From assembly GCA_044222065.1 (NCBI GenBank), contig JBGAOA010000053.1, positions 1-29,996 of the forward strand: a DNA stretch of 29,996 nucleotides, given 5' to 3'. The stretch is from Candidatus Eiseniibacteriota bacterium. GTDB lineage: Bacteria > Eisenbacteria > RBG-16-71-46. The translations under genes were made by a program, and so were the position numbers. The notes under the pieces are model-generated. The model did not search any database. It was not told the DNA's origin and worked only from the letters and a program-made list of their open reading frames with translations. This document shows, one piece after another, positions 135 to 24,205 of this stretch (position 1 is the first letter of the stretch; every line of letters begins with the position of its first letter).

Positions 135-1751
135 ATGAACGAAACCGCCCGCCGCGTGCTGGTCGCGGTGCTCGTCTTCGCCGGATTCCTGGCGCTCTAC
201 CTCGCGACGACGGCGCCCGGGCTGCTGTTCCACGACAGCGGAGAGTTCCAGACGGTCGCGGCCGTCGGCGGAATCCCGCACTCGACCGGCTACCCGACGT
301 TCGTGCTCGCGGGCCGCGTGTTCACGGCCCTGCTGCCCGGCGACGTCGCCTGGCGCGTCAACGCGATGAGCGCGTTCTTCGGCGCATCGACGATCGCGCT
401 GCTCCTCGGAGCGCTCGTCGCGTTCGGCGTCCGGCTGCCGGCGGCCGCCGCGACGGCGATCGCGTTCGGCCTGTCGTTCACGTTCTGGCGTGCGACCTCG
501 CGCGCCGAGGTCTACACGATCGCGACGTGCTTCGCCGCGGGCGCGCTGCTCGCGGGCTTCCTCGCGTGGCGCCATCGCTCGTTCCGGCTCACGCTGCTCA
601 CCGGCTTCCTGATGGGGCTCACGGCGTGCTCGCACCTGAGCTACGCCCCGGCGATCGCGCTCGCGGGGATCGCGCTCGCCTGGCGCACCGCGCGCGACGT
701 GCGGCCCGCGATCCCGGCGCTGTTCGCGCTGCTCGCCGCGTTCCTGCTCGGCGCGGCGCCGTTCCTCTACATCCCGTGGGCCGACGCGCGGCACGTGCCG
801 GCGAACTTCCTCGACCACGTCGCGCGGCTCAAGTTCCTGCTCGCCGACACGACGACGCCGTTCGAGGCGCCGCTCGACAAGCTGCGCTGGCTCGTGCTGG
901 GCGGCAACTACTTCCCGCCGCGGCCGTTCGTCTTCCACCTGCGCCCGGCGGTCGTGAACACGTTCACGAGCGTTTCGATCCTCGCGCTGTTCGAACTCGG
1001 CCCGGTCGCGGTCGTCGCCGCGCTGTTCGGCCTCGCGCGCGAGTGGCCGGCCCGCCGCGCGCTCGCGGCCGTGCTCGTCGCCGGCCTCGCCGGCGTCAGC
1101 GTGTTCGCCTCGCTCGTCCAGGGCGGGCCGATGCTGCACCTGTTGCAGCTGCCCGCCATGCTGCTCGCGCTGCCGTTCATCGCGCGCGGCCTCGAGGCCG
1201 CCCTCGATGCGACGAGCCGCCGCGACGCCGGCACGCGCGGACTCGCGTGGCTCGTCGCGCTCGCGCTTCTCGTCGTGCCGCAGCACGCGCTCCGGCTGTA
1301 CGCGGCGGAGCACCCGATTCCGCCGAAGCGCCTGCACGTCGAGGAGGAGGGCGTGATGCCGCGCGCGGGCTGGTTCCCGTCGCTGCGCGGATTCGACGAC
1401 GCGCGTCGCTACACCGACGCGGCGCTCGCCGCCGCGCCCGAGAGCGCGCTCGTGCTCGCCGCGTGGACCGAGTACACGCCGCTCCGCCACCGGCTGCTCG
1501 TCGAGCACGCGCGGCCCGACCTGCGGATCGAGACCGCGATCGTCGAGGTCGAGCGGCGCAGCGCCGCGATCTGGCGCTCGGACCCGCTCACCGCGCATCG
1601 TCCGATCGTGCTCACGGAGTCCGGGCCCGCGCTCGATTCGCTGCGCGCCGAGACCGACTCGCTGGCGATGCCGGGAGGGCGCTGGCTGTGGATCGTGAAG
1701 CCCGAGGCGCGTCCGAGCGCGAGCGCGATCCCCGATTCGGCCGGAACGTGA
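135..1751 (+). CDS. DUF2723 / TMEM260-like membrane glycosyltransferase (GT-C fold, putative protein O-mannosyltransferase family)
   Basis: N-terminal TM helix, then DSGEF...GIPHSTGYPTF...WRVNAMSA and AEVY motifs typical of DUF2723 proteins; many hydrophobic segments; GGAG SD upstream of the ATG. Confidence 0.8.
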   Translation: MNETARRVLVAVLVFAGFLALYLATTAPGLLFHDSGEFQTVAAVGGIPHSTGYPTFVLAGRVFTALLPGDVAWRVNAMSAFFGASTIALLLGALVAFGVRLPAAAATAIAFGLSFTFWRATSRAEVYTIATCFAAGALLAGFLAWRHRSFRLTLLTGFLMGLTACSHLSYAPAIALAGIALAWRTARDVRPAIPALFALLAAFLLGAAPFLYIPWADARHVPANFLDHVARLKFLLADTTTPFEAPLDKLRWLVLGGNYFPPRPFVFHLRPAVVNTFTSVSILALFELGPVAVVAALFGLAREWPARRALAAVLVAGLAGVSVFASLVQGGPMLHLLQLPAMLLALPFIARGLEAALDATSRRDAGTRGLAWLVALALLVVPQHALRLYAAEHPIPPKRLHVEEEGVMPRAGWFPSLRGFDDARRYTDAALAAAPESALVLAAWTEYTPLRHRLLVEHARPDLRIETAIVEVERRSAAIWRSDPLTAHRPIVLTESGPALDSLRAETDSLAMPGGRWLWIVKPEARPSASAIPDSAGT

Positions 1752-2128
1752 AGCGCCCCGGCCGCGCGCGACGAGCGCGCCATGGTGCAGGTGAAGCTGC
1801 CGCGACCGCGTGCTAGCGTGCGGGCCGCGAGTCTTCGCGACGTTGGGTGCGCGCGTGCGGCCGCTGCGTCGCGGGCGAGGAAGAGAGGAAACGTGTCTTT
1901 GCGCTGGACGACGTTCGCCGAAGTGCCGGAATGCTGCGCGGGCGCGGGGCGCCCGCGGGCGGTGACGGCGGCGCGCGCGGCGCGTTCGGCGTCTGCCCGG
2001 GGCGATCGCGTCGGCCTCGCGAGCGACACGTCGCCGCGCCGCACCGTTCGCGCCGCCGCCGCACGACGGGCCGGCCCCGGGGTCGCGCTCGCGCGTCCCG
2101 CTCGAGCGCTTCGCGGTCATCGGCCTCG

Positions 2129-3769
2129 ATGACCGGCCTCCCCGACGCGCGTCCCCGGCCGTTCGAGGCCGCGATCGTCGAGTTCGCCGAGCGGAACGCT
2201 CGAACGCTCCTCGCGGCGACCTGCCTGATCCTCGGCCTCGGCGCGTGGGTGAACCGCTTCGTCCAGGACGACGCCTTCATCCTGCTCGTGTACGCGCGCC
2301 ACCTCGTCGAAGGGCGCGGGCTCGTCTGGCTTCCCGGCGAGCGCGTCGAGGGCTACACGACGTTCCTCTGGACGCTCGTGCTCGCGATTCCCAACGCGCT
2401 GCGCCTGGATCCGATCGCGTTCGTGTACGGCGCGGGCCTGCTCGTGTTCGAGGCAACGCTGCTCGCGACCTACGCGCTCGCGCGGGACGTGTTCGGATCC
2501 CGCCCGGTCGCGCTGCTGGCGCTGTGGGTGCTCGGGACAAACTACTCGTTCAGCGCGTACGCGACCGGAGGTCTCGAGACGCAGCTGCAGGCGTGCTTCG
2601 TCGTCGTGTCGCTGTGGTTCTCCCGCCGCGTCGGCGGCGGCCGGGGAGGGCCCGGAACGCTCGCGGCGCTTTCGCTCGCCGCCGCCGGAGCGCTCCTCAC
2701 GCGCCTCGATTCGGCGCTGCTGCTGGTCGTGCCGCTGGCCGCGAGCCTCGACGCGGTGCTGCGCGGGAGGAGCGCGACGAATCGCGCCGCGGCGCTCGCG
2801 TGCCTCGTGCTGCCGGCCGCGGCGCTCCTCGGCGCGTGGTTCGCGTGGAAGGTGCCGTTCTACGGCGACCTGCTTCCGAACACGTTCTACGCGAAGGCCA
2901 GCGCGATCTCGTCCTACCGCCGCGGCGTGCGCTACGTCCTGCTGTTCGCTCGCGAGTACGCGCTGTGGCCGTTCGCGATCGCGGTCCTGTTCGCGGCGCG
3001 CACGCTGCTGCGGGACGCGCGGACGACGATCGTCCAGTTCGCGAGCGTCGCGCTCTGGATCGCCTACATCGTGAAGGTCGGCGGCGACTTCATGGAGTTC
3101 CGCATGTTCGTTCCCGTGCTCCCGATCCTCGCGGTCTGGATCGCGGGCGTGCTCGCCGAACTCCGGCCGCGCGTCGTCGCCGCGGCGCTCGCGGCGGGAC
3201 TCGTCGCTTCGAGCGCCGTCCACCGGCTGACCTACGGCTTCGAGATCGAGATGGAGTCCGTCCCGATGCTCCACGCCTACGTGGCCGACCCCGACATCGG
3301 CTGGATCGGCGTCGGCCGGGTGCTCGGCCGCGAATTCGGCGAGGTGCGCGATTCGGTGCTGTTCGCCACGACGGCGGCGGGCGCGATTCCGTTCTACTCC
3401 GGGCTTCCCACGCTCGACATGCACGGACTCATGGACCGGTGGATCGCGCGCCACGGCGCGGTGCGGGATTCGAAGAAGCCCGGGCACCAGCGGTTCGCGC
3501 CGCTCGGCTATCTCGAGCGTCGAGGCGTGAACTTCGTGCTCGGCCATCCCCATCTCTTTCCCCTCGAACCGGAGATGAAGCGATTCCCGCTCGAGAGCTT
3601 CCTCGCGCTCGACTCGGCGGACGTCGTTCGGCCGGCGCAGGCGCGGCTCGTCGAGGTGCCGATCGGCCGGGGTCACGCGCTCACGCTGCTCTACCTCACG
3701 CGCACGCCGGCGCTCGACGCGCTGGTGGCGCGTCGGGGCTGGCGCGTCTCGGAGCCCTCGGACCACTGA
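2129..3769 (+). CDS. Multi-pass membrane glycosyltransferase, AftB-like (GT-C)
   Basis: DDAFI..YARHL..G.GLVW.PGERVEGYT, GLET, LPNTFYAK, GGDFM..R and GAIPFYS...DMHGLMD..IA...KPGH motifs. Start set at ATG 2129; the ORF-track extension from 1847 is low-complexity. Confidence 0.7.
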   Translation: MTGLPDARPRPFEAAIVEFAERNARTLLAATCLILGLGAWVNRFVQDDAFILLVYARHLVEGRGLVWLPGERVEGYTTFLWTLVLAIPNALRLDPIAFVYGAGLLVFEATLLATYALARDVFGSRPVALLALWVLGTNYSFSAYATGGLETQLQACFVVVSLWFSRRVGGGRGGPGTLAALSLAAAGALLTRLDSALLLVVPLAASLDAVLRGRSATNRAAALACLVLPAAALLGAWFAWKVPFYGDLLPNTFYAKASAISSYRRGVRYVLLFAREYALWPFAIAVLFAARTLLRDARTTIVQFASVALWIAYIVKVGGDFMEFRMFVPVLPILAVWIAGVLAELRPRVVAAALAAGLVASSAVHRLTYGFEIEMESVPMLHAYVADPDIGWIGVGRVLGREFGEVRDSVLFATTAAGAIPFYSGLPTLDMHGLMDRWIARHGAVRDSKKPGHQRFAPLGYLERRGVNFVLGHPHLFPLEPEMKRFPLESFLALDSADVVRPAQARLVEVPIGRGHALTLLYLTRTPALDALVARRGWRVSEPSDH

Positions 3770-5934: not shown

Positions 5935-6021
5935 GCGGAAGTGGCGGAACTGGCAGACGCACTAGATTCAGGTTCTAGCGCCCGCAAGGGTGTGGGGGTT
6001 CAAATCCCCCCTTCCGCACCA
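5935..6021 (+). tRNA. tRNA-Leu(CAG)
   Basis: Acceptor GCGGAAG/CTTCCGC + ACCA; anticodon arm CTAGA-TTCAGGT-TCTAG; long variable arm; GTTCAAATC T-loop. Confidence 0.97.
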
Positions 6022-6149
6022 TCTCTTCGCCCGCGCGACGGGCGATTCCGGGCCCGCGCGCGGCGATCGCGCCCGAGCGCCTCCGTCCGGACGGCGCCCG
6101 CACGATCCGCCGGGCCCGCGGTCGCGGATCGTGTCCAGGGAGAGCGCGC

Positions 6150-6626
6150 GTGAGCCCCAAGTCGGAGTCTCCCGATCGTCCGATCGCCCAGAACCGGCGC
6201 GCGCACCACGACTACGCCATCCTCGAGACCTACGAGGCCGGGGTCGTGCTCACCGGCACCGAGGTGAAGAGCCTGCGGCTCGGCAAGGCGAGCCTCGCCG
6301 AGTCGTACGTCGGGATCGAGAACGGCGAGGCGGTCGTGCGGCAGATGCACATCCCGCCGTACGAGCAGGGCAACCGCTGGAACGTGGATCCGGTGCGCAC
6401 GCGCAAGCTGCTGCTGCACCGCGCCGAGATCGGCGAGCTGAAGCGCGCGATCGAGCGCAAGGGCCACACGATCGTGCCGCTCAAGCTGTACTTCTCGAAG
6501 GGCTACGCGAAGCTGCTGATCGGCGTCGCGCGCGGAAAGCAGACGCACGACAAGCGCCACGCGATCGCCGAGCGCGACGCGAAGCGCGAGATCGCTCGCG
6601 CGCGCCGCGCGGCGGAGCGCGGATGA
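6150..6626 (+). CDS. smpB: SsrA-binding protein SmpB
   Basis: NRRAHHDY, EAGVVLTGTEVKSLR, RTRKLLLHR, GK..HDKR motifs. Confidence 0.98.
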   Translation: MSPKSESPDRPIAQNRRAHHDYAILETYEAGVVLTGTEVKSLRLGKASLAESYVGIENGEAVVRQMHIPPYEQGNRWNVDPVRTRKLLLHRAEIGELKRAIERKGHTIVPLKLYFSKGYAKLLIGVARGKQTHDKRHAIAERDAKREIARARRAAERG

Positions 6627-10209: not shown

Positions 10210-10340
10210 CGGCGCGGTCCGGCCCGGCCCCCGCGCGCCGCCGTGCCGGCTCGCCGCATTTGGCCTCGTCACGTCGTCGTCGTGCGCTCGGACGGAGGCG
10301 GCTGAAGAAGTCTCCGAACCTCCGTGCTTTTTCGTCGCGA

Positions 10341-10383
10341 CGGGCGTTTAGCTCTTGGGGCGGGCGTTTCACGGCGCTAGGCT
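10341..10383 (+). promoter_or_regulatory. Possible promoter with a direct-repeat operator upstream of the cohesin/dockerin cluster
   Basis: CGGGCGTTT at 10341-10349 and 10361-10369 (20-bp period) flanks TTGGGG (10355-10360), which lies 17 bp before TAGGCT (10378-10383). Confidence 0.3.
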
Positions 10384-10471
10384 CGCCTCGTTCTGGTCGC
10401 AGCCAACCGGCGCTCCCCCCCACCGTCGCACCGGCAGGGCGGGAGTGTCCCCCCACAGGGAGATTCTCCCC

Positions 10472-13400
10472 ATGCACCGCCTCCGTCGCGGATTCGTCGC
10501 GGCCCTCGCCGCCGTCGTCGCTCCCGTAGTGGCTCACGCCGCCGTCGTTCCCGTGACGAGCAATATCGCGGTCAATACGACCTGGACCAATGGCAACGTC
10601 TACTGGGTCCAGAACTCCATCGCCGTCAACGGGGGCGTCACGCTCACCATCCAGCCGGGTGCCGTCGTGAAGTTCTCGGCGAGCCGCCAGCTGACGGTCA
10701 ACGGCAGCGTGCGCGCGATAGGCGATCCCGTGACCCGCATCACGTTCACCTCGATCAAGGACGACAACGTCGGCGGCGACACGAACGGCGACGGCAACAC
10801 CACGCTGCCCGCGGCGTCCGACTGGTTCGGCATCTACTGGCCCGACGCGAGCGTGGACTTCTCGAGTCGCCTGCACGAATGCGACGTGTTGTACGGCGGT
10901 ACGAGCGCGAGTGCGGCGCTCGTCTTCACGAGCGCGAGCGACACGATCTCGAACTGCAACATCCGTCGCTCGTACTTCGGCGTCGACTGCGCCGGCACCG
11001 CCGCGCCCGTGCTCACGAATACGTCCATCGAGGCCTCGACGCTGACACCGATCGTGCTCGATTTCACGGCCACGCCCGTGTTCTCGAGCCTTGTATTCTC
11101 GAGCGCGAACAATGGCTACGACGCGTTCGGCCTGCGCGGCGCGACGCTCACGACGGGTCAGGTCGCGACGCTGCCCCAGCGCGGCGCGACCGTGGGCGCG
11201 AATCCCGTGACGAACGTCACGTACGTGCTGCTCGGCAGCCTGACGATCAACGCCGGCGCGAGCCTGACGATCAACCCGGGCGTCGTGATCAAGCCGATCT
11301 CGAGCTACGTGATCAGCGTGTTCGGCAATCTCACGATGAACGGCACCGCCGCGGCGGGCGACACCATCACGATCACGTCCATCAACGACGACAACTTCGG
11401 CCTGCCGGGCGACACGAACAACAACGGCTCGATCACGGCGCCCGCGGTCGGGAACTGGGGGTACGTGTACTTCCAGCAGGGTTCGACGGGCTCGGTCAAT
11501 CGCTGCCGGCTCAAGTTCGGATCGAACTCGGCCTCGCTGGGGCTCGTGAGCATGAACAACAACAGCGCCGTGCCGGTGTCGAACTCGCTGCTGAGCGACG
11601 CGGCTCACGGTCTGCTGATCCAGGGCGTGTCGAATCCGGCGGTGACGAACGTCGCGATCAACAACTGCACCTCGACGCCGATCCTCATGTCCGTGTCGGC
11701 GAACCCGACGTACACGAACCTGAGCTTCCTCGCGAACGCCGTGACCGCGCTCGGGCTGATCGGCGAGGACATCGCGGTGAACTCGCACATCTTCTTCCGC
11801 AACGTCGCCGGCTTCACGAACATCACCTACTACGTGATGAACGGTCAGGTGCACATGCAGAGCCCGGCGATCCTCACCATCGATCCGGGCGTCGTGATCA
11901 AGAACCAGCTGTCCGGAGGGGGATTCCTGATCGATGGCGGGCTCATCGCCGACGGCACTCCGGCACAGCCGATCGTCTTCACCTCCGAGCGTGACGACGC
12001 GTACGGCAATCCCCCGGACACGAACGGGGACGGCTCGATCACGACTCCGGCGCAGGCGAACTGGACCTACATCCGCTTCACCGGGACGACCGACGACGCG
12101 AACGCGGTGATCGACAACTGTCGCATCACCTACGCCTCCTACGGTCCGTTCGACAGCTGGCCCACGTCGCTGTGGATCACGAGCGCCGCGCCGATCGTGA
12201 CGAACACGTTCATCACGAAGGCCGCCTACGGAATCCGCATCGACGGCAACGGGACGCCGACGATCTCGACCTGTGACATCAACAACTGCTCTTCCGCTCC
12301 GATCGTGATGTCGGTGCTCTCGGATCCGACGATCGCGACGAACAACGTGTACTCGACGAACGGCTTCAACGCCCTCGCCCTGATCGCCGAGACGCTGTCG
12401 CAGGATGCGCGCATCAAGTACCGCCCGGGCGTCGGCACGCCGACTTTCGCTTACCTGCCGACGGGCACGATCACGGTCGCGACCGGGGTCACGCTGACGA
12501 TCGATCCGCAGGTCGTCCTGAAGCCCTCGAGTTCCTTCACGATGTTCGCGGTGAACGGCGCGCTCAATTGCGTGGGATCGAACGGCACGACCGGTCGCGT
12601 GATCTTCACCTCGCGCCGCGACGACAACCCGTCGTACGGCGGAGACACGACGCCGCTCGACAGCTCGACGCCGCAGGCCGGCGACTGGGGAAACATCACC
12701 TTCAGCGACCAGGCGCTCGACGCCCAGTGCAAGATCCGCAACACGCTGTTCCAGTTCGGCGGCGCGGGGGGCAACGACAACGGCGCGATCTACACCGTGA
12801 GCGCGAGCCCGACGATCGCGCGCAACGAATTCTTCCAGAACGTCACGGCGATGACGTTCGCCGGCACGTCCGCGCCGGTCGTGGACTCGACCACGATCCT
12901 GAACTGCACGCAGCTGCCGATCGTGCTGTCCCTCACGAGCAATCCCCAGTTTCCGCATCCGGATCTCGTGTCGCTCGCGAACAACACGTACACGGCGCTC
13001 GGGCTGTTGGGCGAGACGGTCGCGGTGGACGTGCTGACCGGGGTGCGGCGCCTGAGCGGAATCCCGAACATCGCCTACGTGCCGACGTCCACGATCACGA
13101 TCGCCTTCGGCGCGAAGTGGACGATCAACCCCGGCATCGTGCTCAAGTTCGGCCGGATCTTCGCCGACCCGATCGGCACCCAGATCAACATCGATGGCGC
13201 CCTCGTGGCGGACGGCAAGCCCGACAGCCTGATCGTGTTCACCTCCAGCGCCGACGACGCGTTCGGCGGCGACATCCGCAACGACGGCGCGCTGACGCTG
13301 CCGGCGGCGGGACAGTGGTCGGGAATCGAGTTCCGCAACATCAGCAACGACGCGGCCACGGTCGTGGATCACTGCCGGTTCCGCTACGGCGGCTACTGGG

Positions 13401-15241
13401 CCGCGGGCGCGCTGCGCTTCATCAGCGCGGGACCGACGGTGACGAACTCGGTCTTCTCGCTCTTCAGCGGCGTGGGCACGTCGATCGAAGGCAATTCGAC
13501 GCCGACGTTCACGAACGTGAACATCGATTCGTGCACGAACGTCCCCGTCAACATGTCGCTCGTGAGCGAGCCCGTCTTCAACAACGTGAACTTCCTCGGC
13601 AACACGTTCACGGCGCTCGGGCTGATCGGCGAGAGCATCGCGCAGGACGTGCTGTGGCGGATCCGGCCGGTGTCGGGCCGCAACAACATGCCGTACCTGC
13701 TGCAGGCCCAGCTCACGACGGGGCTCGGAGCGACCGTCACCGTTCAGCCCGGCGTCATCTGCAAGATGTACAGCTCGGGCAGCGTGTTCGTGCAGCGCGC
13801 CTTCATCGCCGAAGGCAAGACCGAGCCCGACAGCAACATCGTGTTCACGTCCTATCGCGACGACTTCTTCGGCGGTGACACGAACGGGGACGGCGTGACG
13901 ACCGTGCCCGCACCGAGCGACTGGAGCTACGTGACGATCGACGGCACGGCGATCGACCCGCAGGTGCGCTTCAAGAACTGCGTGTTCCGCTACGGCGGCA
14001 GCGGCTCGACGCTGGGCGCCCTGCGCGCGGTCAACTCGTCGCCGGCGCTCGATTCGTGCCTGTTCGCGAACAACGCGGTCGGCATCTCGGTCGAGGGCGC
14101 GAGCAATCCCACCGCGCGCGGATGCTCGTTCTTCGGGAACACCCAGTTCGCGATCAACAACACCGGGAACTCGTTCTGCGTGAACGCCGAGGGTTCGTGG
14201 TGGAGCGCCACGAGCGGACCGAACGACGCTTCGGCGACCGCGGACCTGTGCGCGCTCGGCGCGAACGCCGGCACCGGCGACAAGGTGAGCAACAACGTGG
14301 ACTACCAGCCGTTCGTCTCGACGTCGCTCATCAACCCGCTCATCGGTGACGTGAGCCTGAACGGACAGGTGCTCGCCTACGACGCCTCGCTCACACTGCA
14401 GTACCTCGTTGCGCTCGTGTCGCTGTCGCCGCTTCAGAAGCTCGTGGCCGACGTCACGGGCACGGGTGGCATCTCGGCGTTCGACGCGTCGCTCATCCTG
14501 CAGTACGTCGCCGGCATCATCCCCGCGTTCCCGGCCGTCTCGAACCGCGCGGGTCACGTCGAAGTGAGCCCGGCGATCGCACGCCGTACGGTCGATCCCG
14601 CGCGCGGAACGTTCGAGCTCGCGCTCGGCGCTCCCGAGCGCGCGGGCGACGGCTGGGACGTTCCGGTGCGGGTCACCGGCACGGCGCCGGTGTGGTCCGC
14701 CGAACTCGAGCTGCAGGGGGCGGGCGACCTCGTCGCCGTGATTCCTGCGGAAGGCTCCGGTGCGATGGAAGCGCACGCGAGCGCGGACGGCATGATGCGC
14801 GTCGCGCTCAGCGCCGCTTCGCCGATCGAAGGCGCCGAGATCGCGCGGCTGCGGTTCGCCGACGCGGGCGCGGCGTTCGGAGCGCCGGCGGTGACGTACG
14901 CGCGCGTCAACGAGACGGAACTCGTCTCGCGTCCCGCGCCGCCCGTGCACCTGCCCGCCGTCTCCCGGCTCGGCGCTCCGGCGCCGAACCCGGCGAGCGA
15001 CGTCGTGCGGCTCGATCTCGCGATCGCGTCGGCGGACGAGGGCGCCGCGACGGTGCGCGTGCTCGATCTCGCGGGCCGCGTCGTGCGCGACCTCTCTCGC
15101 GGTCCGCTCGCGGCCGGCGAGCACCCGTTCGTGTGGGACCTGCGGGACGGCGGGGGTCGGACGGTCTCGCCCGGCCTCTACTTCCTGCACGCCCGCACCC
15201 GGACGTTCGAAGCCTCCCGTTCCGTGATCGTCGTCCGCTGA
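10472..15241 (+). CDS. Large secreted protein (1589 aa): six beta-helix-type repeats + dockerin + cohesin-like domain + FlgD-Ig/T9SS-like C-terminal domain
   Basis: Signal peptide MHRLRRG...AHA; GGGAG SD. Six copies of LTI.PG.V.K...G.L...G....I.FTS..DD..GGDT...G...P...W. Dockerin GDVSLNGQVLAYDASLTLQY...ADVTGTGGISAFDASLILQY at ~14345-14515. CTD PNPA...VLDLAGRVVR...WD...G..V.PGLYF...VIVVR. Confidence 0.88.
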   Translation: MHRLRRGFVAALAAVVAPVVAHAAVVPVTSNIAVNTTWTNGNVYWVQNSIAVNGGVTLTIQPGAVVKFSASRQLTVNGSVRAIGDPVTRITFTSIKDDNVGGDTNGDGNTTLPAASDWFGIYWPDASVDFSSRLHECDVLYGGTSASAALVFTSASDTISNCNIRRSYFGVDCAGTAAPVLTNTSIEASTLTPIVLDFTATPVFSSLVFSSANNGYDAFGLRGATLTTGQVATLPQRGATVGANPVTNVTYVLLGSLTINAGASLTINPGVVIKPISSYVISVFGNLTMNGTAAAGDTITITSINDDNFGLPGDTNNNGSITAPAVGNWGYVYFQQGSTGSVNRCRLKFGSNSASLGLVSMNNNSAVPVSNSLLSDAAHGLLIQGVSNPAVTNVAINNCTSTPILMSVSANPTYTNLSFLANAVTALGLIGEDIAVNSHIFFRNVAGFTNITYYVMNGQVHMQSPAILTIDPGVVIKNQLSGGGFLIDGGLIADGTPAQPIVFTSERDDAYGNPPDTNGDGSITTPAQANWTYIRFTGTTDDANAVIDNCRITYASYGPFDSWPTSLWITSAAPIVTNTFITKAAYGIRIDGNGTPTISTCDINNCSSAPIVMSVLSDPTIATNNVYSTNGFNALALIAETLSQDARIKYRPGVGTPTFAYLPTGTITVATGVTLTIDPQVVLKPSSSFTMFAVNGALNCVGSNGTTGRVIFTSRRDDNPSYGGDTTPLDSSTPQAGDWGNITFSDQALDAQCKIRNTLFQFGGAGGNDNGAIYTVSASPTIARNEFFQNVTAMTFAGTSAPVVDSTTILNCTQLPIVLSLTSNPQFPHPDLVSLANNTYTALGLLGETVAVDVLTGVRRLSGIPNIAYVPTSTITIAFGAKWTINPGIVLKFGRIFADPIGTQINIDGALVADGKPDSLIVFTSSADDAFGGDIRNDGALTLPAAGQWSGIEFRNISNDAATVVDHCRFRYGGYWAAGALRFISAGPTVTNSVFSLFSGVGTSIEGNSTPTFTNVNIDSCTNVPVNMSLVSEPVFNNVNFLGNTFTALGLIGESIAQDVLWRIRPVSGRNNMPYLLQAQLTTGLGATVTVQPGVICKMYSSGSVFVQRAFIAEGKTEPDSNIVFTSYRDDFFGGDTNGDGVTTVPAPSDWSYVTIDGTAIDPQVRFKNCVFRYGGSGSTLGALRAVNSSPALDSCLFANNAVGISVEGASNPTARGCSFFGNTQFAINNTGNSFCVNAEGSWWSATSGPNDASATADLCALGANAGTGDKVSNNVDYQPFVSTSLINPLIGDVSLNGQVLAYDASLTLQYLVALVSLSPLQKLVADVTGTGGISAFDASLILQYVAGIIPAFPAVSNRAGHVEVSPAIARRTVDPARGTFELALGAPERAGDGWDVPVRVTGTAPVWSAELELQGAGDLVAVIPAEGSGAMEAHASADGMMRVALSAASPIEGAEIARLRFADAGAAFGAPAVTYARVNETELVSRPAPPVHLPAVSRLGAPAPNPASDVVRLDLAIASADEGAATVRVLDLAGRVVRDLSRGPLAAGEHPFVWDLRDGGGRTVSPGLYFLHARTRTFEASRSVIVVR

Positions 15242-15263
15242 GCCGGCGGGGAGGAGGCACGAC

Positions 15264-17330
15264 ATGAAACCGCATCCTCGCTCGGAGACGCCGCGGCGCG
15301 CGCGGCGCGGCGCGTGGTTCGTACTCGCGCTCGCGCTGCTCGCCGCGGGCGCGCCGCGACCGGCCGACGCCGTTCAAGTGACCACCGGCGCCGGCTCGGG
15401 ACTCGCGGGGCAGACCGTCGACATCACGCTCAGCACCGGGAACCTGACCGGGCTCGGCATCGTGTCGCTGCAGTTCGACCTCACCTACTTCGCGAATCGC
15501 GTCACGGCCGTGGACGTGATCGAAGCCGGCACGTCGGTCGGGGCGGCGGGCTGGGGCGACGCGACGTTCAACGTCACGTCCGGGAAGATCTCGGTGAGCC
15601 ACGCGGGCACGACGCCGCTCACGGGCTCGGGCCCGCTGCTCGTGATCCGATTCCTCGTGAATCCGGCGCAGCTCGCGGCGTCGAGCACGCCGCTGACGCT
15701 GTCGAATTTCGTCTTCAACGAGGGCGTGCCGAACGACACGACGACGAACAACACGCTGACGATCCCCGCGACGCCGATCATCACGGTGTCGCCGAACACG
15801 GCCGAGATCGTGCGCGGGAACACGCAGTCGTTCACGGTGTCGGGGACCGTCACGAACCCGGTGACGTGGGCGACGACGAACCCCGCGATCGCGACGGTCA
15901 CGGGCGGCGGCCTGCTCACGGGCGTCGCGCCGGGCGAGGTGCGCGTGTTCGCAGTGGATGCCGCGACGCGCCGAGACACGACCGACCAGGACGTGTTCGT
16001 CCGCGGCATGAGCCTCACGCCGGGCACGCTCACCACGACGCTCGGCCAGTCGTTCAGCCTGCCGATCAACGTCTCGTCGCTGACCGGACTCGGCATCCGC
16101 TCGGGCCAGTTCTCGCTGTCGTTCTCGGGCGGCCGCATCGGGGCGACGGGCGTCAGCACGCCGCCGGGGACGCTGTTGAACGGCTACGGTCCGGTCGCCT
16201 TCGGCTCGACCGCGAACACGGCGACCGTGGATTTCGCCGGCGCGAGCGACCTCTCGGGCTCGGGCATCCTGTGCTACGTCACGTTCGACGCGCTGACGTC
16301 GGGCGGCGTGACCGTCGTGCCGACCTCCGCGCTCTTCAACGAGGTCCTGCCGGCCAAGCTGACGAACGGAACGGTGACCGTGAGTCCGCTGCCCACGATC
16401 ACGGTGAGCCCCGAAAACGTGACGCTGCTCGCGGGCCAGACGCAGGCGTTCACGCTCGGCGGAAGTCCGACGCCGCCGATCACGTGGAGCACGCTCGATC
16501 CGGCGGTCGCGACGATCTCGCCGGGCGGGCTCCTCACCGCGGTCGCGGGTGGCGTGACGAAGGTGCGCGCGCAGGACGCTCTCGGGGCGGTGGACCTGAA
16601 CGGTTCGGTGACCGTGTACGACTTCAAGGTCACGCTCGCGACCGTGAACGCTCCGCCGGGCGCGACCGTGCGCGTGCCGTTCCTGCTCGATCGCGACATC
16701 AGCGCACTCGGCGCCCACTCGCTGCAGTACACCGTGACGTACAACGGCACGCACGTGCTGCAGTCGCGCTCGCTGCACGAGGGGCTCGTGTCGGTGTGGG
16801 ATCCGAACATCGTCACGAACGTGCACCCGACGTCGATCGTCGTCGCCGAAGGCGGCGTCGCGACGCTCGGGAGCGGCAACGGCGAACTCGACGTGCTCGA
16901 ATTCGACCTGTCGCCGTCCGTGCCGGTCGGGACGAACCTCCCGCTCACGGTCCTCGGCATGACGTTCAACGAAGGCCTGCCCTCGCCGCAGGTCGTGAAC
17001 GGCATGATCCAGGTGCGCACGAACGCGGATGCGCCCGGGGCCGAGGCGCCACGGCTCGCGTTCGCGGCGCCGTGGCCGAACCCCGCGCACGGCGCGGTGC
17101 GGCTGCAGCTCTCGCTGCCCGAGGCCGACGCCGGCGCGTGCGTGCGCATCGTGGGCGTGGACGGGCGCCTCGTGCGCCGGCTTGACCTCGCCGCGTCGGA
17201 TGCGGGTGCGGGCGAAACGCTCTGGGACGGACTCGACACCGCCGGGCGCCGGGCGCGCCCGGGACTCTATTTCGCGACGCTCGAATGGCGCGGCGAGCGC
17301 CTGACGCGCCGCTTCGCGCTCGTGCGCTGA
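15264..17330 (+). CDS. Scaffoldin-like secreted protein: cohesin-Big2-cohesin-Big2-cohesin + FlgD-Ig/T9SS-like CTD
   Basis: GGAGG SD; signal peptide ending ADA. Three ~125-aa units with G.TV.I....L..LGI.S.QF.LTY...GSG.L....F...FNE. Two Big_2 units ITVSP....L..G.TQ.FT.......TW....PA.AT....GLLT.VA.G...V.A.DA. CTD PWPNPA...DGRLVR...WDG.D..G...PGLYF. Confidence 0.85.
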   Translation: MKPHPRSETPRRARRGAWFVLALALLAAGAPRPADAVQVTTGAGSGLAGQTVDITLSTGNLTGLGIVSLQFDLTYFANRVTAVDVIEAGTSVGAAGWGDATFNVTSGKISVSHAGTTPLTGSGPLLVIRFLVNPAQLAASSTPLTLSNFVFNEGVPNDTTTNNTLTIPATPIITVSPNTAEIVRGNTQSFTVSGTVTNPVTWATTNPAIATVTGGGLLTGVAPGEVRVFAVDAATRRDTTDQDVFVRGMSLTPGTLTTTLGQSFSLPINVSSLTGLGIRSGQFSLSFSGGRIGATGVSTPPGTLLNGYGPVAFGSTANTATVDFAGASDLSGSGILCYVTFDALTSGGVTVVPTSALFNEVLPAKLTNGTVTVSPLPTITVSPENVTLLAGQTQAFTLGGSPTPPITWSTLDPAVATISPGGLLTAVAGGVTKVRAQDALGAVDLNGSVTVYDFKVTLATVNAPPGATVRVPFLLDRDISALGAHSLQYTVTYNGTHVLQSRSLHEGLVSVWDPNIVTNVHPTSIVVAEGGVATLGSGNGELDVLEFDLSPSVPVGTNLPLTVLGMTFNEGLPSPQVVNGMIQVRTNADAPGAEAPRLAFAAPWPNPAHGAVRLQLSLPEADAGACVRIVGVDGRLVRRLDLAASDAGAGETLWDGLDTAGRRARPGLYFATLEWRGERLTRRFALVR

Positions 17331-17341
17331 GGAGACGAACC

Positions 17342-18127
17342 ATGCCGACGCCTCTCGTGCTTCTCCGCTCGTGCGTATGCGCGGGCCTCGTCGCGTGCGC
17401 GCTCGCCGCGTGCACGACGCCGGCGCGCGCCGTCGTCGTGGACCTGCCGACGATCGCGGCCGCGCGCGGCGACACCGTCACGCTCGACATCGCGGCCGAT
17501 CAGCCGCTCGGCGGGCTGGGCATCTATGGGATCGAGTACACGCTGACGTTCGATCCCGCGGTCGTATCGGCGGCGCTGCCCCAGCCGGTCGGCGCCGCGT
17601 GGACGTGGGGGCCGCCGTTCGCGAACGTCACGTCGAACGCCGTGCTGCTCGCCGCGGCGGGCGCGACGCCCGTCGCCTCGCCTTCGGCGCTGCTCCATCG
17701 CGTGCGGCTCGTCGTCTCGGGCAGCGCGCCGAACGGTTCGTCGCTGCTGTCGCTCACGCGCCTGCGCTTCAACGAAGGCTCGCCCGCGGCGACGCAGGTC
17801 TCGGGCTTCCTGCAGATCGGGACCGTGGACGTCGCCTCCGGTCGCGGGGCCGGCGCGGTGCTCGCGCCGGTGAGCCCGAATCCCGCGCGCGGGCGCGCCT
17901 CGTTCGCGATCCGCGTCGAGGATGCGCGCCGCGCGCGCGTCGCGATCTTCGACCTGCACGGGCGGCGCGTGCGCGGAGTCGACGTCGCCTCGCTCGGCGC
18001 GGGCACGCACGCGCTGTCGTGGGACGGCCGCGACGATGCGGGCGCGCCGTCGCCCGCGGGCGTGTACGCGGTCCGGCTCGAAGCGGGCGGGACCGCGGCG
18101 GTGCGGCGCTTCGTCTGGCTGCGCTGA
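17342..18127 (+). CDS. Single-cohesin secreted protein (261 aa) + FlgD-Ig/T9SS-like CTD; possible lipobox
   Basis: GGAG SD; GDTVTLDI...LGGLGIYGIEYTLTFDPAVV...LRFNEG matches the cohesin units of the upstream gene. CTD PNPARG...IFDLHGRRVR...WDGRDDAG...AGVY. LAAC at Cys24. Confidence 0.82.
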   Translation: MPTPLVLLRSCVCAGLVACALAACTTPARAVVVDLPTIAAARGDTVTLDIAADQPLGGLGIYGIEYTLTFDPAVVSAALPQPVGAAWTWGPPFANVTSNAVLLAAAGATPVASPSALLHRVRLVVSGSAPNGSSLLSLTRLRFNEGSPAATQVSGFLQIGTVDVASGRGAGAVLAPVSPNPARGRASFAIRVEDARRARVAIFDLHGRRVRGVDVASLGAGTHALSWDGRDDAGAPSPAGVYAVRLEAGGTAAVRRFVWLR

Positions 18128-20338: not shown

Positions 20339-20416
20339 TGGGGTGGATGAGGGGATTTGAACCCCCGACCCCCTGAGCCACAGTCAGGTGCTCTAACCAG
20401 CTGAGCTACATCCACC
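20339..20416 (-). tRNA. tRNA-His(GTG)
   Basis: G-1 plus acceptor GTGGATG/CATCCAC, discriminator C, CCA; anticodon arm CCTGA-CTGTGGC-TCAGG. Confidence 0.97.
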
Positions 20417-20449
20417 ACCAGCGGATGACGGGACGCAAGGAAGCACGTC

Positions 20450-20526
20450 TGGCGCGCCTGGAGGGAATCGAACCCCCGACCCGCGGATTAGAAATCCGCT
20501 GCTCTATCCAACTGAGCTACAGGCGC
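20450..20526 (-). tRNA. tRNA-Arg(TCT)
   Basis: Acceptor GCGCCTG/CAGGCGC + GCCA; anticodon arm GCGGA-TTTCTAA-TCCGC. Confidence 0.97.
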
Positions 20527-20575
20527 GGAGGCCTTCGGTCGGACGCGATCCCTGGGTCCACCCGCGGCTGTGCAG

Positions 20576-20652
<77 letters not shown>

Positions 20653-20679
20653 GAATATCGAGTTGTACGAGCGGGCGGC

Positions 20680-20709
20680 AGGATAGCCGCGCGTTCCGAG
20701 CAGCGTCAA
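20680..20709 (-). promoter_or_regulatory. sigma70-type promoter of the tRNA-Pro-Arg-His(-pyk) transcript
   Basis: Minus strand TTGACG (20709-20704), 18-bp spacer, TATCCT (20685-20680); same -35 and spacing as the tRNA-Leu promoter. Confidence 0.65.
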
Positions 20710-20835
20710 ACCCGCGCCGCGAGCCCGCGCGCACGATGCGAGGGCGGGAAATGCCGCTGGCGGCGAGACGGGGGGCGGCCTATCGTCCAGCGTCATCGCC
20801 GCACTCCACTCCTCTCGCGCGGGTTCGCCTCCGAC

Positions 20836-23316
20836 GTGACCAGCACTTCCCACCGGTCCGCCCTGATCAGCGGGCGCAACGTCCTGACGGCCATCGGCCT
20901 CGTCGGGCTCCACTTCGGCGCAGCCGTGCTCGGACTCGAGCTCGCCCGGAGCTGGCACCAGGTGTCGCCCGTGTGGCCCGCGAGCGGCGTCGCGGTGTGG
21001 ATGGCGCTCGTCTACGGTCCGCGGGCGATCGTGCTCGTCGCGCTGTCGTCCATCGCCGTGACGTTCGTCCGCGGAAACGCGGACTGGACGAGCGCGGCGC
21101 TCGTGGCCGCGAACGTGCTCGAGGCGGGTGTGGCGGCGCTGCTCCTGCGGCGCGTCGTGCGCTTCCGCGTTCAGCTCGACCGCCCCGACGACGCGCTCGG
21201 CCTGATCGCGATCGGCGGCATGCTCGCGCCGGCCGTGAGCGCCACGATCGGCGTCGGCTCGCTCGTGCTCGCCGGCCGTTTCCCCGTGGCGCAGGCGTTC
21301 GATCCGTGGCGCTCGTGGTGGGCGGGCAATTCGATCGGCGTGCTCGTGTTCACCCCGGTGCTGCTCGCGTGGGCGCCGCGCAGTTCGGTCGTCCGTCCGC
21401 GCACGGCGCGCGTGGAGCTGATCGCGCTGCTCGTGCTCGCGCTCGGCGTGAGCCTCGCGGCGTTCGGCATCCTGCGCGTGGACGAGAGCCTGATGTTCGC
21501 CTCGCGGTTCGCGCTATTGCCGGTGCTCGTGTGGACGGGGCTGCGCTTCACCGCGAGCGAGACGTCGCTCGTCGTGCTGGTCGCCGGGGTCACGGCCACG
21601 CTCGCGACGTTCGGCCGCAGCGTCGGGCTCGGGGTGCAGGACCATCGCGAGGGCGAGGTCGTCTTGCAGGCGTTCCTCGGCTTCGTCGCCGGCGCGGGAT
21701 TGCTGCTGTCCACGGTCACGAGCGGCATGCGGCGGACCGAGCGCGAACTGCGCGAGGCGTTCTCGCTGCTGTCGGCGACGCTCGACTCCACGGCGGACGG
21801 CATCCTGGTCGTGGATCTCGAGGGCCGGATCCGCACGTTCAACCGCCGCTTCGGGGACCTGTGGCGGATCCCGTCCGAGATCCTGCTCACGCGCGACGAC
21901 CAGCGCGCGATCGCGTTCGTGCTCGATCAGCTGCGCGACCCGGGCGGATTCCTGAGCAAGGTCGAAGCGCTGTACGCGCACCCCGGCGCCGAGAGTTCCG
22001 ACGAGCTCGAGTTCAAGGACGGACGCATCTTCGAGCGCACGTCGCGGCCGCAGTACGAAGGCGAACGCGTCGTCGGCCGCGTGTGGTGCTTCCGCGACGT
22101 CACGAAGTCCCGTCGGCTCGAGACGGAGCTGCGCCAGACGCAGAAGATGGAGGCGATCGGACGGCTCGCGGGCGGCGTCGCGCACGACTTCAACAACCTG
22201 CTCACCGTGATCCTCGGGCACTGCGAGATGCTGCTCCAGAACCTGCGCGCCGAGGCGCCGCAGCGCCGCGACGTGACCGAGATCCGCGACGCGTCGCAGC
22301 GCGCGGCGGATCTCACGCGCCAGCTGCTCGCGTTCAGCCGGCGCCAGGTGCTGTCGCCGCGCACGCTCGAGCTGAACACGATCGTGCGCGAGACGAGTTC
22401 GATGCTTCGCCGCCTGCTGCCCGAGGGCATCGAGCTGCGCACCGACCTCGGCACCGCGCAGGGCGGAGTGCGCGCGGATCCCGGCCAGATGCAGCAGGTG
22501 CTCCTGAACCTCGCGCTCAACGCGCGCGACGCGATGCCCGACGGCGGCGCGCTCACGATCCGCACGTACGAGGTCGCGCTCGAGGGCGGCGGCACCGACG
22601 GACTCGACCTGCCGTCCGGTCCCTACCTCGTGCTCTCGGTATCGGACACGGGCGCAGGCATGGACGAAGAGACGCGCACGCACCTGTTCGAGCCTTTCTT
22701 CACGACGAAGGAGCAGGGGCAGGGGAGCGGACTCGGGCTCGCGACCGTGTACGGCATCGTGCGGCAGAGCGGCGGCGACATCGCGGTGTGGAGCGCGCCC
22801 GGAGAGGGTTCGCACTTCCGCGTTTTCCTGCCGCGCGTCGGGCTCGGCCCCGATCCGCTCGCGAGCCCGGCCGAGGCGACGTTCGCGCGACGCCGGGCGA
22901 CCGTCATGCTCGTCGAGGACAATCCCGGCGTGCGCCGACTTCTCGGCGACGCGCTGCGCAGCGCCGGCTACCGCGTGCTCGAAGCCGCGCACGGCGGCGA
23001 CGCGGCCGGGCTCGCGCGCGAGACCGCCGAAGAGATCCACGCCCTCGTCACCGATGTCGTGATGCCCGGGCTCGGCGGCCCCGAACTCGCGGACCGCCTG
23101 CACGCGGAGCGGCGCGTCGGCGCGGTGCTGTTCGTGACCGGCTACTCCGACGTGCGCGACCTCGACGTCGGCGCGAAGCCGTACCCGTGCGAGCTGCTCC
23201 AGAAGCCGTTCACGCCGCAGGCGCTCACCCGGGCGCTCGCGGACCTGCTCGATCGCGCCGCCCCGGGGACCTCGGGCGGCGCGTCCGCGCGCCGCGACGG
23301 CGACGAACGCGGGTAG
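20836..23316 (+). CDS. Hybrid sensor histidine kinase: MASE1 - PAS - HisKA - HATPase - receiver
   Basis: MASE1-like SPVWPASG...[16 protein letters not shown] ([17 protein letters not shown]); H-box [48 protein letters not shown]...TDVVMPG...QKPF. Start (GTG 20836) uncertain; the ORF-track start overlaps the tRNAs and is not credible. Confidence 0.92.
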
Positions 23317-23849: not shown

Positions 23850-24205
23850 GGGGGCGATTGGTTTCGACGGGGGTCGAGAACCGAAAAGTGCAGGCCGGGG
23901 GTCCCGTGCCCTCGTCAAAAACGCGGGAATATCACAACTGCCGATGAGCAGTTGGCTCTCGCCGCTTAATTAAGCGGTGACGATCGCCCGGACCCCGCCT
24001 GTGGGGGCCGGATGCGAGCGTCATACAAACGCAGGCTGGTCCAACGCCCTCGCTCGTGGGCCGAGGACGAGATCAATCGAGCTGGCGCGCCGACGATCCC
24101 GCCGGTCGGAGCGGGGGCGCGCGAGATTCAAACGGCCGGACACGCCTGTAGGACTCTTCGGGGACAGACTTTCGGACGCGGGTTCGATTCCCGCCGCCTC
24201 CACCA
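23850..24205 (+). ncRNA. ssrA: tmRNA; tag reading frame 23940-23969 encodes (A)ADEQLALAA
   Basis: 5' GGGGGCGA..TGGTTTCGAC; 3' GGACGCGGGTTCGATTCCCGCCGCCTCCACCA; acceptor stem with G3-U70. ACAACT-GCC resume context; tag ends LAA-TAA inside the CCGCTTAATTAAGCGG hairpin. Confidence 0.97.

Follow-up and report, generated by a model that had tools for sequence, protein, structure and literature searches.

A conserved, non-cellulosomal cohesin-dockerin surface module with a single beta-helix payload in Eisenbacteria

We describe a real, conserved, non-cellulosomal cohesin-dockerin surface module encoded by three adjacent genes of a Candidatus Eiseniibacteriota bacterium (GenBank assembly GCA_044222065.1; 4.21 Mb in 131 contigs, about 72% G+C). 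The window, by which we mean the whole stretch of 29,996 nucleotides that was analysed, is contig C98 (JBGAOA010000053.1) of this genome. Gene 1 encodes a long beta-helix protein with a dockerin, the plug; gene 2 a scaffoldin-like protein with three cohesins, the sockets; and gene 3 a small protein with one cohesin. According to our analysis the system is new in being closed, single-payload and, by prediction, exported through type IX secretion (T9SS), and in that the plug-bearing protein also has a socket. The genes and their modules are given below; FlgD_ig has a cut-off of 27 bits, and all three tails lie above it at the C-terminus.

10472..15241, + strand: gene 1, 1589 aa; signal peptide, six-module beta-helix, dockerin, degenerate cohesin, T9SS-type C-terminal domain
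10541..14311, + strand: beta-helix region of gene 1, aa 24 to about 1280, right-handed and parallel; Pfam Beta_helix 92.7 bits in 5 stretches
14345..14509, + strand: dockerin of gene 1, aa 1292-1346; two near-identical segments of calcium loop plus helix
14603..14938, + strand: degenerate cohesin "X" of gene 1 by its modelled fold, about aa 1378-1489, between dockerin and C-terminal domain
14963..15238, + strand: C-terminal sorting domain of gene 1; FlgD_ig 32.7-37.5 bits, TIGR04183 15.5-20.6 bits, below its cut-off of 23
15264..17330, + strand: gene 2, 688 aa, scaffoldin-like; signal peptide, cohesin A (CohA), Big_2, CohB, Big_2, CohC, C-terminal domain
15366..15773, + strand: CohA; passes the Pfam cut-off with 33.2 bits; solved cohesins matched by profile A3 at E 6.2e-8
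15774..16007, + strand: Big_2 domain 1, by Pfam
16008..16388, + strand: CohB; Pfam 19 bits; solved cohesins matched by profile A4 at E 4.8e-4; scores 47 bits with the CohA profile
16389..16619, + strand: Big_2 domain 2, by Pfam
16620..17027, + strand: CohC; Pfam 14.7 bits; profile A5 against solved cohesins E 1.5e-6
17055..17327, + strand: C-terminal sorting domain of gene 2; FlgD_ig 31-33.8 bits, TIGR04183 unlisted at E up to 0.01
17342..18127, + strand: gene 3, 261 aa; signal peptide, cohesin D (CohD), C-terminal domain
17426..17836, + strand: CohD; Pfam 17.8-18.8 bits, below the cut-off; profile A6 against solved cohesins E 5.2e-4
17855..18124, + strand: C-terminal sorting domain of gene 3; FlgD_ig 44-46 bits, TIGR04183 (Por_Secre_tail) 26-28.5 bits, over its cut-off of 23

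The cluster is an operon for secreted surface proteins. All three frames lie on the plus strand, start with ATG at 10472, 15264 and 17342, are separated by 22 nt and 11 nt, and have a G+C fraction at third codon positions of 0.88-0.93. A purine-rich Shine-Dalgarno string stands before each ATG: AGGGAG for gene 1, GGAGGAGG in the 22-nt gap for gene 2, and GAGGAG for gene 3, the last overlapping the stop codon of gene 2 in the 11-nt gap. The N-termini resemble Sec signal peptides, as judged by eye from the sequence, and the final residues are IVVR, ALVR and VWLR. An earlier note on this DNA, made from its letters, had reported three tight co-directional genes with such gaps, Shine-Dalgarno strings and endings, and coordinates and sequence agree with it.

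The dockerin stands close to the family threshold, with Dockerin_1 (PF00404) at 22.1 bits in hmmscan against a cut-off of 22.9, and at 29.4 bits, over the cut-off, in a six-frame scan of the genome. Profiles were also built from 10-16 orthologs for each cohesin unit and for the dockerin. Searched against the PDB sequences, the dockerin profile (A1, 16 orthologs) matches best 4uyq_B at E 2.5e-7, and 21 of the 24 matches listed are dockerin-bearing chains. The alignment displays the duplicated architecture of a dockerin, tandem segments of about 22 residues each made of a 12-residue EF-hand-like calcium loop and then a helix. Segment 1 reads GDVSLNGxVxAxDAS...Q and segment 2 DV(S/T/D)xxxx(V/I)xxxDA(S/T)..L, and loop 1 keeps its calcium residues D, S, N, G and D unchanged throughout the 16 sequences. 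Among Eisenbacteria orthologs the mean column identity is 78% in the dockerin, 69% over all of gene 1 and 53% in the X domain, so that the dockerin, with its invariant calcium-loop and helix residues, is the most conserved segment of the region from dockerin to C-terminal domain and stands above the gene as a whole.

On the side of the sockets, gene 2 matches both Cohesin (PF00963; 50.6 bits in 2 stretches) and Big_2 (PF02368; 63.3 bits in 2 stretches), together with FlgD_ig at 31 bits. Each of the four profiles of CohA to CohD has solved cohesins as its top PDB matches; CohB, CohC and CohD cross-match the CohA profile at 44-54 bits in the genome scan, and CohC and CohD are the closest pair (95-102 bits). 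Judged by these profiles, CohA to CohD are genuine cohesins and the dockerin is a genuine dockerin. The layout that the earlier note had read from the letters, a dockerin in gene 1, three cohesins with two Big_2 spacers in gene 2 and one cohesin in gene 3, is borne out by the matches of ortholog profiles to solved dockerins and cohesins; it had also considered that the units might be unrelated immunoglobulin-like (Ig) or carbohydrate-binding domains, and the profiles point to cohesins instead. Gene 3, which shares 32% identity with aa 456-687 of gene 2, is by this alignment a paralogue of CohC plus the C-terminal domain. We also considered gene 3 as a lipoprotein, given Cys-bearing lipobox-like strings in its signal peptide, and rejected this, the ortholog N-termini compared being without Cys.

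One module of gene 1 had been missed in the earlier note, a fifth cohesin about 30 residues from the dockerin, which we call X. By sequence X is hardly visible: it has no Pfam match, its profile (A2) gives 0 matches to PDB sequences at E up to 10, and hhalign relates it to CohD (E 0.002, probability 14%), CohC (0.011, 3.9%) and CohA (0.48, 0.1%) at levels too weak to be used alone. Two other lines of evidence reveal what it is. An AlphaFold2 (AF2) model of the gene 1 tail gives X a predicted local distance difference test score (pLDDT) of 80-90, and in VIA-align the top rows for its range are cohesins: 2jh2_B at Z 10.6 (root-mean-square deviation (rmsd) 3.0, 110 of 134 residues aligned), 2vo8 at Z 10.5 and 2o4e at Z 9.4. 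Foldseek on the three-part tail model returned mixed two-domain alignments, cohesin constructs together with many pairs of single-chain antibody fragments (scFv) or FN3 domains at rmsd of about 15, and was uninformative until VIA-align split the domains. The second line comes from homologues. A search with the X region matched 409 proteins, and those outside Eisenbacteria are beta-helix proteins of 1750-2000 aa, with source names including Ca. Kryptonia, Bacteroidales, Ignavibacteriae and Carboxylicivirga, that carry precomputed Pfam Beta_helix, Dockerin_1, Cohesin and Por_Secre_tail. In the 5 homologues that we rescanned, a Pfam cohesin of 25.5-63.9 bits lies about 25-35 residues past the dockerin, and the tail of gene 1 is collinear (E 4e-34) with that of the Kryptonia homologue P0216, whose equivalent domain is the 63.9-bit cohesin. 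By modelled fold and by collinear homologue, then, X is a cohesin, even with the sequence-family match itself lacking; and because gene 1 carries its own cohesin beside the dockerin, it is both plug and socket.

A Pfam six-frame scan of the whole genome finds a sole Dockerin_1 site, that of gene 1, which answers the earlier note's proposal to look for other dockerin-bearing proteins. Scanning with the lineage profiles confines the dockerin to gene 1 and this cohesin family to genes 2 and 3. As the genome has no dockerin besides that of gene 1, the system is closed: a single type of plug faces five sockets. In type I dockerins from cellulosomes, near-duplicate halves go with a dual binding mode, and by analogy the near-identical halves of the gene 1 dockerin suggest that it may bind in two modes as well. 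As a side observation, contig C47 (about 12600-14100, minus strand) holds two adjacent open reading frames (ORFs) with FlgD_ig tails, one of them with a weak Pfam cohesin match (17 bits); they are unrecognised by the lineage cohesin profiles and may be a second, more divergent pair of cohesin-like surface proteins.

The module is inherited as a unit. We surveyed 151 Eisenbacteria genomes, the window's own included. Full-length gene 2 (E < 1e-130) occurs in 22 of them, all other matches being to the tail only, and strong dockerin matches (E < 1e-33) occur in exactly the same 22, one in each except for two in G141; weaker dockerins are found in four further genomes of the phylum. Twenty of the carriers belong to the window's family, one to another family of the same order and one to another family of the same class. 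Gene order was read in 15 loci of the 21 other carriers, those with gene 2 near a contig end (G008, G095, G131, G136, G141, G143) being omitted. In 15/15 a full-length gene 1 ortholog (52-68% identity) lies directly upstream of gene 2; by coordinates the dockerin is also just upstream of it in G008, G131, G136 and G143, and in G095 and G141 the pair is split between two contigs, each gene at a contig end. In 10 of the 15 loci gene 3 comes next, and in one of these, G005, its frame holds a TAG codon; it is an optional part of the module. Hence the expectation of the earlier note that the three genes co-occur in relatives stands strictly for genes 1 and 2 (22/22 genomes) and in part for gene 3. 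Flanking genes are common to the window and just one of the 15 loci, and ORF clustering of the window and 51 loci gave no other conserved neighbour, the largest other cluster comprising 6 loci, which indicates that the module moves as a unit. Two genomes of the phylum without the gene 2 family, G082 (C1:3673979-3675235) and G137 (C29:3640-4947), have single ORFs of about 1500 aa with two more distant dockerins each, a different dockerin architecture within the same phylum.

The same pairing is met outside the phylum. Scanning metagenomes with the homologue named from Kryptonia yielded 45 loci, of which the 36 strong ones (L054-L089) were examined; L090-L098 were dropped as partial matches with identity of 25-37% (62% in one 33-residue match) and E of 2e-7 or weaker. 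A dockerin is present in 30 of the 36, and 23 of those 30 have at least 500 nt downstream. In all these 23 informative loci, from other lineages of the Fibrobacteres-Chlorobi-Bacteroidetes (FCB) group, the gene 1 homologue is followed directly, on the same strand, by a cohesin gene; every complete copy of this gene has 3 units, and 3 loci have a one-cohesin gene in between. Pfam on four of the multi-cohesin genes gives Cohesin at 65-88 bits, Big_2, Por_Secre_tail and often a PKD stalk, and on a 281-aa one-cohesin gene Cohesin at 25.8 bits plus Por_Secre_tail. The core of three cohesins alternating with two Big_2 domains is found at E 1e-30 or better in 298 representative clusters among 1.84 billion. 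The pair of genes 1 and 2 is therefore a conserved two-gene module across FCB lineages and is not peculiar to this organism. Three of the metagenome loci (L070:11937-15899, L071:5505-8435 and L088:11121-14498) carry PKD/PKD_6 repeats between the cohesin core and the T9SS tail; the insert looks like a variable-length stalk and is absent in the Eisenbacteria version.

As to the way to the surface, the gene 1 tail model has the Ig-like beta-sandwich fold of T9SS C-terminal domains, matching in VIA-align the PorU C-terminal domain (6za2_B, Z 10.4, 92 aligned) and PorZ (5m11, Z 9.1), and its profile (A8) matches the PorU domain at E 2.1e-4. The genome encodes PorU (469.5 bits, cut-off 420) and SprA (512 bits summed, cut-off 200), and directly after PorU a PorV-like gene of 91.6 bits, below the cut-off of 250. 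The earlier note's suspicion of a diderm host and its proposal to look for T9SS genes thus proved well placed. It had also named the sorting domain of each subunit in its heading. The genome has at least 150 matches to TIGR04183 and at least 150 to FlgD_ig, and because at least 150 genes carry such tails, the tail on every subunit is the generic surface-export tag of the organism and no special property of the cohesin-dockerin proteins. T9SS function is not known to have been demonstrated by experiment in Eisenbacteria, though no search aimed at this point was made.

Taking this together, we favour, with moderate rather than strong confidence, a scaffold on the cell surface to which the gene 1 dockerin would dock through the cohesins of genes 2 and 3. 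The products of the three genes would pass the inner membrane through Sec and then the outer one through T9SS, their tails being recognised by the PorV/PorU machinery, and the cargo would stay at the cell surface or close to it. In that place the gene 1 dockerin, loaded with calcium, may insert into the cohesins of gene 2, and into that of gene 3 where it is present, and one scaffold with Big_2 spacers would then gather as many as three beta-helix subunits. Because only one type of protein is carried, the aim would be to display the beta-helix multivalently so as to bind, and possibly cleave, an extracellular polymer or surface, and not to recruit diverse enzymes. The conservation of the dockerin (78%) and its near-duplicate halves support such docking.

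Several points weigh against this proposal. We infer the contact between dockerin and cohesin from family membership and co-inheritance only, and co-inheritance is expected of any two genes of an operon and is by itself no proof of physical contact. The Pfam gathering cut-off is missed by the dockerin (in hmmscan), by CohB, CohC and CohD, and by X. AF2, run on the tail as a single chain, predicts the dockerin poorly (pLDDT 35-70) and does not pack it confidently on the neighbouring X. Five sockets per plug are an odd stoichiometry for a display scaffold, and since every one of the three proteins is equipped with a sorting tail, gene 1 does not depend on a scaffold for reaching the surface. Evidence of expression is slight as well: mismatch-free contigs from RNA libraries (4 runs, 3 studies) lie on all three genes, one of them (X15, 17125-17391) spanning the junction of genes 2 and 3, and they leave parts of the operon uncovered, which tells neither for nor against transcription; being short, and with DNA carry-over possible, they are a weak hint of transcription. 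A separate feature of the RNA libraries is a pile-up of contigs at 13204-13837 in two runs of one sample, where word depth is about 35-39 against 0-4 elsewhere; these contigs have loose ends and extra letters between aligned parts, and most likely come from a related sequence of another organism and not from gene 1.

The nature of the payload is a further matter. Six modules of about 205 aa can be distinguished in the beta-helix by motif spacing only, each marked by an [FI]TSxxDD motif (at aa 92, 301, 503, 712, 923 and 1125) and then a DTNGDG-type loop; self-BLAST of gene 1 for internal repeats shows nothing off the diagonal. The first two modules (aa 24-450), modelled with AF2, form one uninterrupted right-handed beta-helix (pLDDT 86.4, predicted template modelling score 0.82), and the beta-helix region belongs to the PF13229 beta-helices both by family match and by modelled fold. 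Across model residues 1-427 it matches solved beta-helix proteins at Z 13-17, namely autotransporter passengers, phage tailspike depolymerases, alginate epimerases, lyases of polysaccharide lyase family 6 (PL6), NosD and polygalacturonases. Foldseek on the model gave no match at E 1e-3 or better, and the ESM Atlas search with the region found generic Beta_helix/NosD clusters only. The modelled fold brings no functional clue, as adhesins and polysaccharide-active enzymes are matched equally, and this too weighs against a confident account of the display.

It would be reasonable to ask, then, if the operon encodes a minimal enzyme complex, in which the beta-helix is a lyase, hydrolase or epimerase of an undescribed family and three catalytic subunits sit on each surface scaffold. 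This idea overlaps with scaffold docking, for it concerns the payload and not the assembly, and we consider it unlikely, if worth keeping in sight. The earlier note had spoken of a system without glycoside hydrolases, which is right for recognised families, Pfam and curated-model scans of genes 1-3 recognising no family of carbohydrate-active enzymes (CAZymes), and goes too far as regards the fold: the beta-helix is common to many polysaccharide lyases, hydrolases and epimerases, so that the payload may be enzymatic. AlgG/AlgE4 epimerases, PL6 alginate lyases, polygalacturonases and phage depolymerases stand at Z 13-16 with the model, the weak Foldseek list holds the same classes, and the Pfam rescan of the X homologues also gives NosD/CASH-type matches. 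The habitat would suit such an activity, as the organism occurs in sludge, biofilm and bioreactor metagenomes rich in exopolymers, by the labels of 14 DNA runs (bioreactor, biofilm, activated sludge or sludge) that contain 63-94% of the window's sampled words; one of these runs may be the source sample. Set against this, Vag8 (Z 17.2) and pertactin (Z 16.1), autotransporter passengers that are no enzymes, are matched equally well; no CAZy-type family is recognised; no catalytic residues could be assigned; and the row of six tandem modules has more the look of a fibre or adhesin than of one active-site groove.

Quite unlikely, in our opinion, is an arrangement with no cohesin-dockerin contact at all, in which cohesin and Big_2 domains would be Ig-like spacers or binders of carbohydrate or matrix, the dockerin a calcium-stabilised linker, and the operon shared through action on the same extracellular substrate. 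Work of Peer and colleagues in 2009 is said to have found non-cellulosomal cohesin and dockerin modules without a known partner to be widespread, and both the separate sorting tail on each protein and the low Pfam scores of most modules would fit. What speaks against it is that a single dockerin and this cohesin family co-occur exactly across the phylum, in 22 and 22 of 151 genomes, that genes 1 and 2 are adjacent across phyla, and that the conservation of the dockerin, with its invariant calcium-loop and helix residues, has the pattern of a constrained interface.

The discovery of X opens one more option, self-assembly, in which the plug of one gene 1 protein would enter the X domain of a second, or its own, giving dimers or head-to-tail chains, and the cohesins of genes 2 and 3 would have some other role, for instance capping, anchoring or the binding of a non-dockerin ligand. 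Dockerin and cohesin are about 30 residues apart within gene 1, X has a cohesin fold, and the order of dockerin, cohesin and tail is kept in the homologues named from Kryptonia, Bacteroidales, Ignavibacteriae and Carboxylicivirga. We nevertheless regard this as decidedly unlikely: X is the least conserved part of the Eisenbacteria gene 1 (53% against 78% in the dockerin) and is without detectable sequence similarity to cohesins (hhalign probability at most 14%), a pattern in keeping with a role that has relaxed or changed; the AF2 model shows no docking of the dockerin onto X in cis; and the three-cohesin gene is kept beside gene 1 in 23/23 informative loci outside the phylum, which argues that its sockets are in use. 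We may even imagine a cohesin-dockerin-polymerised fibre or lattice on the surface, with head-to-tail chains of gene 1 growing from gene 2 as a trivalent scaffold and from gene 3 as a monovalent anchor, and we hold this to be decidedly improbable too. If true, it would be a previously undescribed route by which T9SS-bearing bacteria of several FCB phyla obtain long beta-helix appendages or a coat beyond the outer membrane, and would need neither pilus nor S-layer machinery.

Scaffold docking, the reading that we prefer, invites comparison with known systems. Clostridial type I pairs (ScaB dockerin and ScaC cohesin of Acetivibrio cellulolyticus, 4uyp/4uyq; Clostridium scaffoldin cohesins, 6kg8 and 1g1k) belong to the same module families by profile search, and with clostridial cellulosomes our system shares the dockerin of duplicated calcium loops and helices and the tandem cohesins with Ig-like spacers on a non-catalytic scaffold; the single-cohesin protein of gene 3 resembles an anchoring scaffoldin. 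The differences are more substantial. A cellulosome gathers many dockerin-bearing CAZymes, dozens of enzymes, on a scaffoldin with a carbohydrate-binding module (CBM), whereas here there is one dockerin-bearing protein per genome, no recognised CAZyme family in genes 1-3, and no CBM in gene 2, where Pfam shows Cohesin, Big_2 and FlgD_ig only. With one dockerin and no CBM on the scaffoldin, the system is not an enzyme-recruiting cellulosome. The host is moreover a diderm with predicted export and anchoring by T9SS tails, in place of S-layer homology (SLH) domains or sortase, and the dockerin protein itself has a cohesin.

In this last respect there is a likeness to Clostridium perfringens, whose non-cellulosomal cohesins sit on the cargo proteins themselves, with no dedicated scaffoldin, and whose glycoside hydrolase (GH) cohesins (2jh2, 2vo8, 2o4e, 2w1n) are the best structural matches to X (Z 9.4-10.6). 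Those carriers, unlike gene 1, are recognised GH84/GH33 enzymes of a Gram-positive bacterium, and the Eisenbacteria system has a beta-helix carrier, a separate three-cohesin protein and T9SS tails. As regards T9SS type A cargo (PorU/PorZ C-terminal domains 6za2 and 5m11; TIGR04183), the gene 1 tail is alike in fold, the gene 3 tail exceeds the TIGR04183 cut-off and the machinery genes are present; unlike in that cargo, the Eisenbacteria tails score better to FlgD_ig than to Por_Secre_tail, and those of genes 1 and 2 remain below the TIGR04183 cut-off. Among FCB-group diderms, a T9SS-tail-anchored, cellulosome-like cohesin-dockerin complex was proposed from genomes for the Cloacimonadota "Ca. 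Stygibacter" (PMC8542988), and in both cases the assembly is read from genomes only. In that complex the dockerins are on several enzymes (GH18, GH57, S8 and C25 peptidases) and the scaffoldin has 3755 aa and CBMs; the Eisenbacteria system differs from what is described there by its single beta-helix payload, a compact 688-aa scaffold and a fixed operon of two to three genes. Among the papers searched we found none combining Eisenbacteria with cohesin, and none combining dockerin, cohesin, "parallel beta-helix" and Bacteroidetes; dockerin, cohesin and Ignavibacteria come together in two papers, once in each.

The surroundings of the operon in the window are of a housekeeping character. Upstream are genes of SmpB, an amidase, a Germane-domain protein, glutamate racemase and RNase PH, and downstream, on the opposite strand, pyruvate kinase. 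Between RNase PH and gene 1 lies the following region.

10210..10471, + strand: intergenic region of 262 nt, likely the promoter region of the operon

A scan for sigma-70-like promoters gave 0 sites, also upstream of gene 1, and terminator-like sites number 3 against 4.1 expected, which is no signal. Farther away, a transfer-messenger RNA (tmRNA) gene lies at 23850-24205 (+; 179.9 bits in Rfam, with the tag peptide ADEQLALAA), some 17 kb downstream from smpB (5979-6626), its partner gene, and a tRNA-Leu(CAG) at 5935-6021 (+) just ahead of smpB. A minus-strand cluster of tRNA-His, tRNA-Arg(TCT) and tRNA-Pro(TGG) at 20339-20652 overlaps the 5' part of the long ORF 20425-23316, a MASE1 hybrid histidine kinase, which must consequently start downstream of its first ATG. 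A homologue of TMEM260-like protein O-mannosyltransferases (68 bits) is encoded at 135-1751 (+), and after it comes an ORF of 640 aa (1847-3769) without a Pfam match; we found no link to the operon.

Known from textbooks as components of Gram-positive cellulosomes, cohesin-dockerin pairs also have wide use in synthetic biology, and the role of their many non-cellulosomal copies is an old question, to which this operon brings a clean minimal case with one plug type, five sockets and one payload. The module recurs in homologues named from Kryptonia, Ignavibacteriae and Bacteroidota, among them proteins named from cultured Carboxylicivirga. If the binding is true, diderms would be using the assembly logic of the cellulosome for a non-enzymatic or single-enzyme surface structure, the modules would amount to a cohesin-dockerin set that is new and orthogonal, and the beta-helix proteins now labelled "hypothetical", a large family often met in sludge and biofilm, would acquire a testable function.

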